From a virus (Duplodnaviria; Heunggongvirae; Uroviricota; Caudoviricetes), in IMG/VR virus record IMGVR_UViG_2585427784_000006: a stretch of 11,684 nucleotides of DNA. One strand, 5' to 3'. Numbering within the stretch: the first letter of the stretch is position 1; every line of letters begins with the position of its first letter. The translations under genes were made by a program, and so were the position numbers. Shown here in pieces: positions 8,786 through 8,956 of this stretch. A model generated the notes under the pieces. It saw only the letters and a list, made by a program, of their open reading frames with translations, was not told where the DNA came from and made no database searches.

Positions 8786-8956
8786 ATGTCAGAACGTAAA
8801 GACTCAAAATCACGCCGTAATTATCTCGTTAAATGTTCCTGCCCAAACTGCACCCAAGAGTCAGAACACAGTTTTTCAAGAGTACAAAAAGGTGCCCTTT
8901 TGATCTGCCCTCATTGCAACAAAGTATTCCAGACAAATCTTAAAGCTGTAGCCTGA
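8786..8956 (+). CDS. Small zinc-ribbon protein (four-Cys, CxCPxC ... CPHC), possibly YnfU-like
   Basis: Track ORF 8735..8956; ATG at 8786-8788 preceded by AGGAAA gives 56 aa MSERKDSKSRRNYLVKCSCPNCTQESEHSFSRVQKGALLICPHCNKVFQTNLKAVA. Oriented against the late operon. I recall a small zinc-binding protein annotated in Qin but am not certain of the name. Confidence 0.5.
   Translation: MSERKDSKSRRNYLVKCSCPNCTQESEHSFSRVQKGALLICPHCNKVFQTNLKAVA

Follow-up and report, generated by a model that had tools for sequence, protein, structure and literature searches.

The ynfU gene and its described relatives

The slot between the antiterminator gene Q and the lysis genes of lambdoid phages can hold morons, of which the stx genes of the Stx phages are an example. 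Here we analyse a small gene in this slot, ynfU, in an 11,684-nt stretch of viral DNA (Caudoviricetes; IMG/VR record IMGVR_UViG_2585427784_000006), the whole of which is called the window below. The gene is an open reading frame (ORF) of 56 codons at positions 8786-8956 on the plus strand, with an ATG at 8786 and a TGA at 8954-8956, and its product is MSERKDSKSRRNYLVKCSCPNCTQESEHSFSRVQKGALLICPHCNKVFQTNLKAVA. It is close to certain that the ORF is ynfU and that ynfU is a genuine zinc-ribbon gene carried in a moron cassette. For the locus as a whole, the best explanation is very probably that the zinc-ribbon gene is part of a ynfU-cspB(-cspF) cassette that is portable and, in Escherichia, a moron.

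The gene itself is not new. It was first found by Ribo-RET in 2019 and has been named, published and entered in RefSeq, Pfam and NCBIfam, and the window ORF is a correct rediscovery. The preliminary description of this DNA, made from the letters alone, was right in taking the ORF for real, but missed that it is the published gene. What our analysis adds is modest, namely the csp-cassette context, an assignment of the zinc ligands and a conserved block in the 3' untranslated region (3'UTR) of cspB.

Megablast found DNA 100% identical to window positions 8600-9600 among complete E. coli genomes, where RefSeq labels the gene "ynfU: putative zinc-binding protein YnfU" with cspB adjoining. In K-12 MG1655 the same gene (b4776, 1640805-1640975) lies in the cryptic prophage Qin with essQ and cspB as flanks, and the annotated K-12 gene with its upstream region is 99.5% identical to the window at the nucleotide level. 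The window prophage shares this essQ/cspB placement within Qin but diverges from K-12 Qin further left, where a terminase-capsid fusion stands in place of stfQ/nohA, and, unlike K-12 Qin, it has a frameshifted cspF. In hidden Markov model (HMM) searches, YnfU matched Pfam PF23499 "YnfU" (E=2.5e-31, 107.7 bits against a cut-off of 27, residues 1-49 on profile positions 1-49) and, over its full length, NCBIfam NF038384 (E=7.9e-23, 79.8 bits against a cut-off of 36). A profile search had been suggested as a check on the ORF, and it thus returned full-length family matches far above the curated cut-offs. Of 5426 complete E. coli genomes, 1650 (30%) carry the gene, each in a single copy.

Of the named proteins that resemble YnfU, the N-terminal zinc ribbon of YjdM/PhnA (PF08274; P. 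aeruginosa PA0128, PDB 2akl) gave the best non-self Pfam match, and the two share a ribbon with two CxxC knuckles. This match (E=1.3e-4, 22.4 bits) lay below the gathering cut-off of 30.8, the YnfU profile matched PDB 2akl at only E=0.37, and YnfU is without the C-terminal PhnA domain that YjdM/PhnA has. Ribosomal and ribosome-associated zinc ribbons (eL42/L44e, bL32, bL33, eS27, L37Ae and the archaeal HVO_2753/DUF1610 type) matched about half of the protein at E-values from 2.8e-4 to 0.15. With eL42/L44e, only residues 13-36 aligned (E=2.8e-4 to 0.02), which falls short of a full-length match, and the NCBIfam L44e model gave E=0.62; homology of YnfU to the ribosomal zinc ribbons is not established.

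The YmcF/YnfQ-like proteins (PF23641) and YnfR are, like YnfU, rich in cysteine, about 60 residues long and encoded next to csp genes in Qin-type csp islands, and the RefSeq name of YmcF is "cold shock small protein". However, these genes follow their csp gene in the same orientation, while ynfU and its csp converge, and homology between YnfU and the PF23641 proteins was rejected (hhalign probability 2.3%). With the lambdoid morons, the ynfU cassette shares its insertion between conserved phage genes, Q and holin, at a site where related phages do not have it, and ynfU is found in few phage records and in a minority of E. coli genomes. It would also share their autonomy, expression from a resident prophage and dispensability for phage functions. 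It differs from them in that ynfU points against late transcription and in that the insert is a three-gene csp cassette located mostly outside prophages.

Coding status and predicted fold of YnfU

By size alone the ORF is within what chance would give, as ORFs of 40 aa or more number 81 in the window. We therefore cite the pattern of substitution, measured over the first 49 codons of the homologues from 80 genomes, one representative per species, which comprise 70 distinct nucleotide sequences. Mean synonymous divergence (pS) was saturated at 0.76, mean nonsynonymous divergence (pN) was 0.17 and the median dN/dS was 0.10. Third codon positions varied at 47 of the 49 codons, first positions at 30 and second positions at 27. 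The ynfU frame was open in all 70 sequences, and any other frame in three at most. The gene is thus under strong purifying selection, and the HMM scores, the median dN/dS and the exclusive maintenance of the annotated frame together identify ynfU as a real gene.

Published work shows that it is translated. Weaver et al. discovered ynfU by ribosome profiling with stalled initiation complexes (Ribo-RET), found in a western blot of chromosomal SPA-tagged proteins that the level of YnfU was the highest of their newly identified small proteins, and described a pair of CPXC zinc knuckles in it, with the PA0128 zinc domain as a moderate match in threading (bioRxiv 10.1101/511675). In RiboReport, ynfU has full Ribo-seq coverage and a translation initiation site peak, and PIRT-Seq independently recovered it as translated (PMC12350097). 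The two observations on which the preliminary description had let its proposal of a genuine small zinc-ribbon gene depend, translation in profiling or tagging experiments and a synonymous bias among related sequences, are therefore both positive. YnfU is readily detected in K-12 although its Qin prophage is annotated as cryptic. The preprint of Weaver et al. reportedly appeared later in mBio, in 2019.

Translation starts at the annotated ATG, giving the 56-aa form. The annotators of phage HannyBb chose an in-frame ATG at 8735, which would give 73 aa. We rejected this longer form, since the extension is not conserved as protein, ATG 8735 sits upstream of a conserved -10-like element, and both Ribo-RET and the annotation pipeline PGAP favour the shorter form. 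As the preliminary description had said of its function, no assignment was found in the literature searched, and no expression data under cold conditions were found in the publications that mention ynfU. A silver-nanoparticle paper that names ynfU/cspB reports one intergenic polymorphism in one line (frequency 0.28), which is no functional evidence.

The protein is strongly basic, with 10 K/R against 4 D/E, and the basic N-terminus noticed earlier comprises R4, K5, K8, R10, R11 and K16. The CxCPxC and CPHC motifs were also read correctly (C17-S-C19-P-N-C22 and C41-P-H-C44). The label "four-cysteine" does not hold for E. coli YnfU, which has five cysteines, although it does describe the four knuckle cysteines conserved across the family. 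Among 1.84 billion representative sequences, a word-indexed search and an exhaustive HMM search for homologues returned a small family, with 46 members at E<=0.001. By profile search the family is confined to the Enterobacterales, in Escherichia, Citrobacter, Klebsiella, Raoultella, Enterobacter, Kosakonia, Kluyvera, Cronobacter, Hafnia, Serratia, Yersinia, Erwinia, Brenneria and Providencia.

In the family alignments C19, P20, C22, C41, P42 and C44 are invariant or nearly so. The stretch between the knuckles reads S-E-H-S-F-S/T-R-V/I-Q-K-G, reduced to S-x-H-S ... (R/K)-(V/I)-x-(K/R) in divergent members, so that members can be recognised by two CPxC knuckles about 22 residues apart with S-E-H-S ... 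R-V-x-K between them. The divergent members (30-45% identity) have no C17 but keep C19-P20-x-x-C22 and C41-P42-x-x-C44. Since C17 is missing from the distant members while the knuckle cysteines are kept, the probable Zn2+ ligands are C19, C22, C41 and C44.

Structure prediction supports a zinc ribbon as the fold class. An AlphaFold model built with 28 close homologues had a predicted local distance difference test score (pLDDT) of 59.7 and was discarded; with 44 diverse homologues, the pLDDT rose to 76.8 overall and 83-89 over residues 11-50. The predicted topology is strand, knuckle, strand, short helix, strand, knuckle, strand. Only zinc ribbons were matched in structural and profile comparisons, and the sequence profile gave sub-threshold local matches in the PDB to eL42/L44e and other ribosomal zinc ribbons. 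Foldseek found nothing at E<=0.001 when the model was compared with viral models, PHROG returned no match beyond weak generic ones, and no PADLOC family matched at E<=1. No function can be transferred to YnfU from any of these fold or sequence matches.

Apparent domain fusions were rejected. Long proteins (3179, 1396 and 578 aa) matched YnfU only as repeated knuckle-sized stretches, one of them (P0073) being a run of zinc-ribbon repeats, and matched proteins of 167 and 186 aa were read-through calls. There is also a sub-threshold likeness (E=5.9e-4) between YnfU residues 5-53 and the zinc-ribbon part of Pfam GpA_ATPase; one Kosakonia homologue carries the GpA_ATPase label, and a similar ...CPHCGEYFQP... 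knuckle occurs at residues ~240-263 of the terminase fragment encoded by window ORF 2000-3985. This is probably a generic similarity among zinc ribbons.

The ynfU-cspB cassette and the late region of the prophage

The genomic context was surveyed at 80 loci, one per species, by tblastn of the window proteins and de novo clustering of the neighbouring ORFs. A csp gene lies within 1.2 kb of ynfU at 55 of the 80 loci and lysis genes within 3 kb at 10, in Escherichia, Shigella, some Citrobacter, Superficieibacter and one Yokenella; these loci are related by descent, so the counts are not of independent events. Of the 55 loci with a nearby csp, 45 are without lysis genes nearby. The nearest csp is downstream and convergent with ynfU, as in the window, at 37 loci, and in many genera cspB is often followed by a divergent cspF-like gene. 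The larger flanking genes vary widely and fall into 41 signatures (SDR/LysR in Raoultella and Klebsiella, for instance). The gene for YnfN is within 1.5 kb of ynfU at 21 of the 80 loci, and genes for YmcF/YnfQ-like small proteins are nearby at 7. The mobile unit is thus the ynfU-cspB(-cspF) cassette. In Escherichia and some Citrobacter it sits in the moron slot between Q and holin; elsewhere in the Enterobacteriaceae, it is found mostly in ordinary chromosomal contexts.

Phages carry the gene rarely (8 of 50,697 phage records) and in several arrangements. The complete phage HannyBb has the order Q ... cspF-cspB-ynfU-holin, with 96.8% identity to the window over 4.5 kb. In phage PHB10, ynfU-csp-cspF lies beside integrase and umuDC, outside the lysis region, and in Klebsiella phage ST13-OXA48phi12.4 ynfU adjoins holin without any csp. 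Some divergent family members are still near csp genes, as in Hafnia (ynfU-DUF2058-CSD) and Cronobacter (a csp and a YmcF-like gene 2 kb away). This linkage does not extend to Yersinia, a second Citrobacter type, Serratia, Erwinia, Providencia and Brenneria. The divergent loci have other neighbours as well: a 127-aa TolA-domain (PF06519) gene lies near ynfU in Hafnia (loci L168-L170, where the DUF2058 and CSD genes are also found) and Serratia (L175-L176), and a ProQ/FinO-domain gene is upstream of ynfU at one Providencia locus (L178).

In the window, ynfU is flanked on the left by the essQ/essD holin gene, the first gene of the lysis cassette (8350-8565, minus strand; annotation and tblastn). 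On its right is its convergent partner cspB with a cspA-type 5'UTR thermoregulator (9304-9696, coding sequence 9320-9535, minus strand; Rfam RF01766, 158.8 bits), and further right is the Q-type antiterminator gene quuQ/ydfT (10211-10963, minus strand; Pfam Antiterm PF03589, E=3.1e-54). The gene is thus opposite to the unit running from Q to the lysis genes and convergent with cspB, as first described, a geometry shared by the complete phage HannyBb. From this arrangement, Q-dependent late transcription on the minus strand must cross ynfU in antisense to reach the holin gene, and the earlier suggestion that Q-modified transcription may interfere with ynfU is a reasonable one for intact phages. 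The preliminary description had treated ynfU as a feature of the phage late operon, which is too narrow for the family, given the few loci with lysis genes nearby.

Upstream of ynfU, the good ribosome-binding site reported earlier is a Shine-Dalgarno sequence AGGAAA at 8775-8780 (plus strand), 5 nt before the ATG, whose CAGGA core varies little or not at all among 26 sequences from a wide range of genera. It belongs to a block of about 45 nt (~8749-8785) conserved across genera directly 5' of the ATG, in which it comes after a -10-like hexamer. The candidate -10 is TACTGT at 8753-8758 (plus strand), for which the upstream alignments give a family consensus of TAnnGT with A2 and T6 invariant, and it would put the transcription start downstream of the alternative ATG at 8735. 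A consensus promoter scan chose another site, TTGAAA-18-AATAAT at 8698-8727. The window has a perfect CTGTATA/TATACAG inverted repeat adjoining the Shine-Dalgarno sequence. An RNA structure or thermometer in the leader was considered and rejected, as RNAalifold found not one conserved pair among 25 sequences and the z-score for the sequence by itself was -0.41. The block is better read as a -10 element, and we infer that it may constitute a promoter with a short leader.

Between ynfU and cspB, a terminator scan found a GC-rich hairpin at 9019-9038. On the minus strand, at the end of the cspB transcript, it forms a strong intrinsic terminator, and on the plus strand, where the T-run is poor, a weak candidate. 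Hairpins of the AAAACCCGC...GCGGGTTT type recur in this interval in Citrobacter, Raoultella, Klebsiella and Superficieibacter. Between the hairpin and the cspB stop codon lies a non-coding block of ~125 nt (9039-9165, minus strand), which blastn found conserved at 70-80% identity at ~23 loci of at least seven genera and in phage PHB10. RNAalifold gave -13.7 kcal/mol with seven covarying pairs on the minus strand and -8.0 with three on the plus strand, and no Rfam family matched the block. From its alignment, the block is probably a structured part of the cspB 3'UTR, and it could be a small RNA derived from that 3'UTR.

On the cspB side of the block is an 11-codon ORF, MKQWPAYLAKS (9208 to 9173, minus strand), with a perfect AAGGAGG Shine-Dalgarno sequence at 9223-9217 that is sequestered in a 14-bp hairpin (9244-9213). 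The hairpin weakly resembles a FourU thermometer (RF01795, 23.4 bits against a cut-off of 60, E=0.023). The peptide is found only in Escherichia and phage HannyBb, with the variants MKQWLAYLAKS and MKQWPAYLAIT, and is unannotated in K-12. The third member of the cassette, a cspF-like gene (9846-10060, plus strand), is a frameshifted pseudogene in the identical RefSeq genome, and the window ORF stops after 51 aa. A strong hairpin terminator lies 3' of it at 10081-10104.

Cold-shock-associated genes are found on both sides of the lysis cassette in the window, with the cspI group on one side and cspB, cspF and ynfU on the other. A second cspA-type thermoregulator (6407-6792, minus strand) accompanies cspI, after which (~5930-6430) the identical RefSeq genome has ymcF, ynfR and ynfN, followed by gnsB. 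Further left, an ORF of 661 aa (2000-3985, minus strand) fuses the N-terminal ATPase domain of a GpA-type large terminase (residues 40-263) in frame to a major capsid domain (363-658). Such a fusion implies that a deletion took out the genes for the terminase nuclease, the portal and the protease, which makes the window prophage defective. A full-length match to Rfam IS009 (723-921, minus strand; 226.7 bits, E=3.3e-56) lies in or overlaps a tail-fibre assembly gene (689-1270).

Possible roles of YnfU

How YnfU might act can be sketched from its sequence and predicted fold. C19, C22, C41 and C44 would hold one Zn2+ in a structural Zn(Cys)4 site, and the rigid ribbon would present a basic surface made up of the N-terminal tail, R32, K35 and the SEHS strand. 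This surface could bind nucleic acid, the ribosome or a larger protein. We put this forward tentatively as the most likely role, with a structural zinc site that may serve to display a binding surface. In a lysogen, ynfU would be transcribed from its own promoter, like its csp neighbours, and during lytic growth of an intact phage the late transcription would run antisense through it.

Several explanations for the presence of the gene can be weighed against this background. One of these is that YnfU is a partner of the neighbouring Csp RNA chaperones, an RNA or ribosome factor of the cold and long-term stationary response that is co-regulated with cspB, cspF, cspI and ynfN. This possibility draws support from synteny, from the basic nature of the protein and its stationary-phase abundance, and from the joint regulation of the genes around ynfU. 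For example, a common rise of cspB, cspF, cspI, ynfN and ydfK has been described for long-term stationary phase (PMC7406224), and the small protein YnfR, encoded beside cspI, is reported to be cold-induced (PMC6001520). However, the literature searched has no cold expression data for ynfU itself, the six divergent lineages show no csp linkage, the matches of YnfU to ribosomal proteins are below any significance threshold, and the linkage may be hitch-hiking inside a mobile cassette. A Csp partnership is therefore possible but doubtful. More doubtful still is the fuller proposal that ynfU, cspB with its structured 3'UTR and cspF form a portable cold and stationary-phase stress cassette, in which YnfU would be no phage accessory but would act with Csp on RNA or the ribosome, and that lambdoid phages captured this cassette as a moron benefiting the lysogen. 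The gene could instead belong to the phage proper, with the protein or its antisense transcription tuning holin and late-gene expression or the timing of lysis. This would fit the divergent position of ynfU next to holin in Escherichia, in Klebsiella phage ST13-OXA48phi12.4 and at locus L080, and its place between Q and holin in HannyBb. A role in lysis is nevertheless unlikely, given the rarity of lysis genes near ynfU across species, the lack of a specific PHROG match, the small number of phage records and the integrase-side location in PHB10.

A role in zinc homeostasis, with YnfU buffering or storing zinc or being under Zur control in analogy to the system of small zinc-ribbon ribosomal paralogues, could be suggested by the four-cysteine site, the abundance of the protein and a half-site, GAAATGTT, that resembles a Zur box upstream of ynfU in E. 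coli only. One zinc per 56 residues, though, is what a structural site would hold, and other genera do not conserve the half-site. A search upstream of ynfU for the Zur-box core TGTTATAATATAACA (a general consensus, not a curated matrix) found no match with up to three mismatches, and Zur regulation was rejected on these grounds; we consider a zinc-homeostasis role very improbable. An anti-phage defence or superinfection-exclusion function would be in keeping with the moron slot, which has Q on one side and the lysis genes on the other, and with expression from a cryptic prophage. It has as little to recommend it, as no PADLOC model matched and most family members are in chromosomal contexts outside prophages. 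Finally, the many ORFs of similar length in the window would be compatible with a chance ORF or a non-coding region, but the strongly synonymous substitution pattern, the single conserved open frame, the HMM matches and three independent published lines of translation evidence leave that idea practically no probability.

Elsewhere in the window, at 5487-5501, an AT-rich palindrome (TGTTTAAATATAACA) has two mismatches to the Zur-box core probe. It lies between an unnamed 68-aa ORF (5084-5290) and gnsB and is probably a chance match.

YnfU is one of the more abundant of the recently discovered small proteins of E. coli. Across the Enterobacteriaceae its gene is retained beside csp genes much more frequently than beside phage lysis genes, and this difference in linkage suggests that its role should be sought in the cold or long-term stationary phase and among RNA or ribosome partners, rather than in the control of lysis. 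The ynfU cassette also offers a concrete case of a multi-gene host stress cassette in the moron slot of lambdoid phages.
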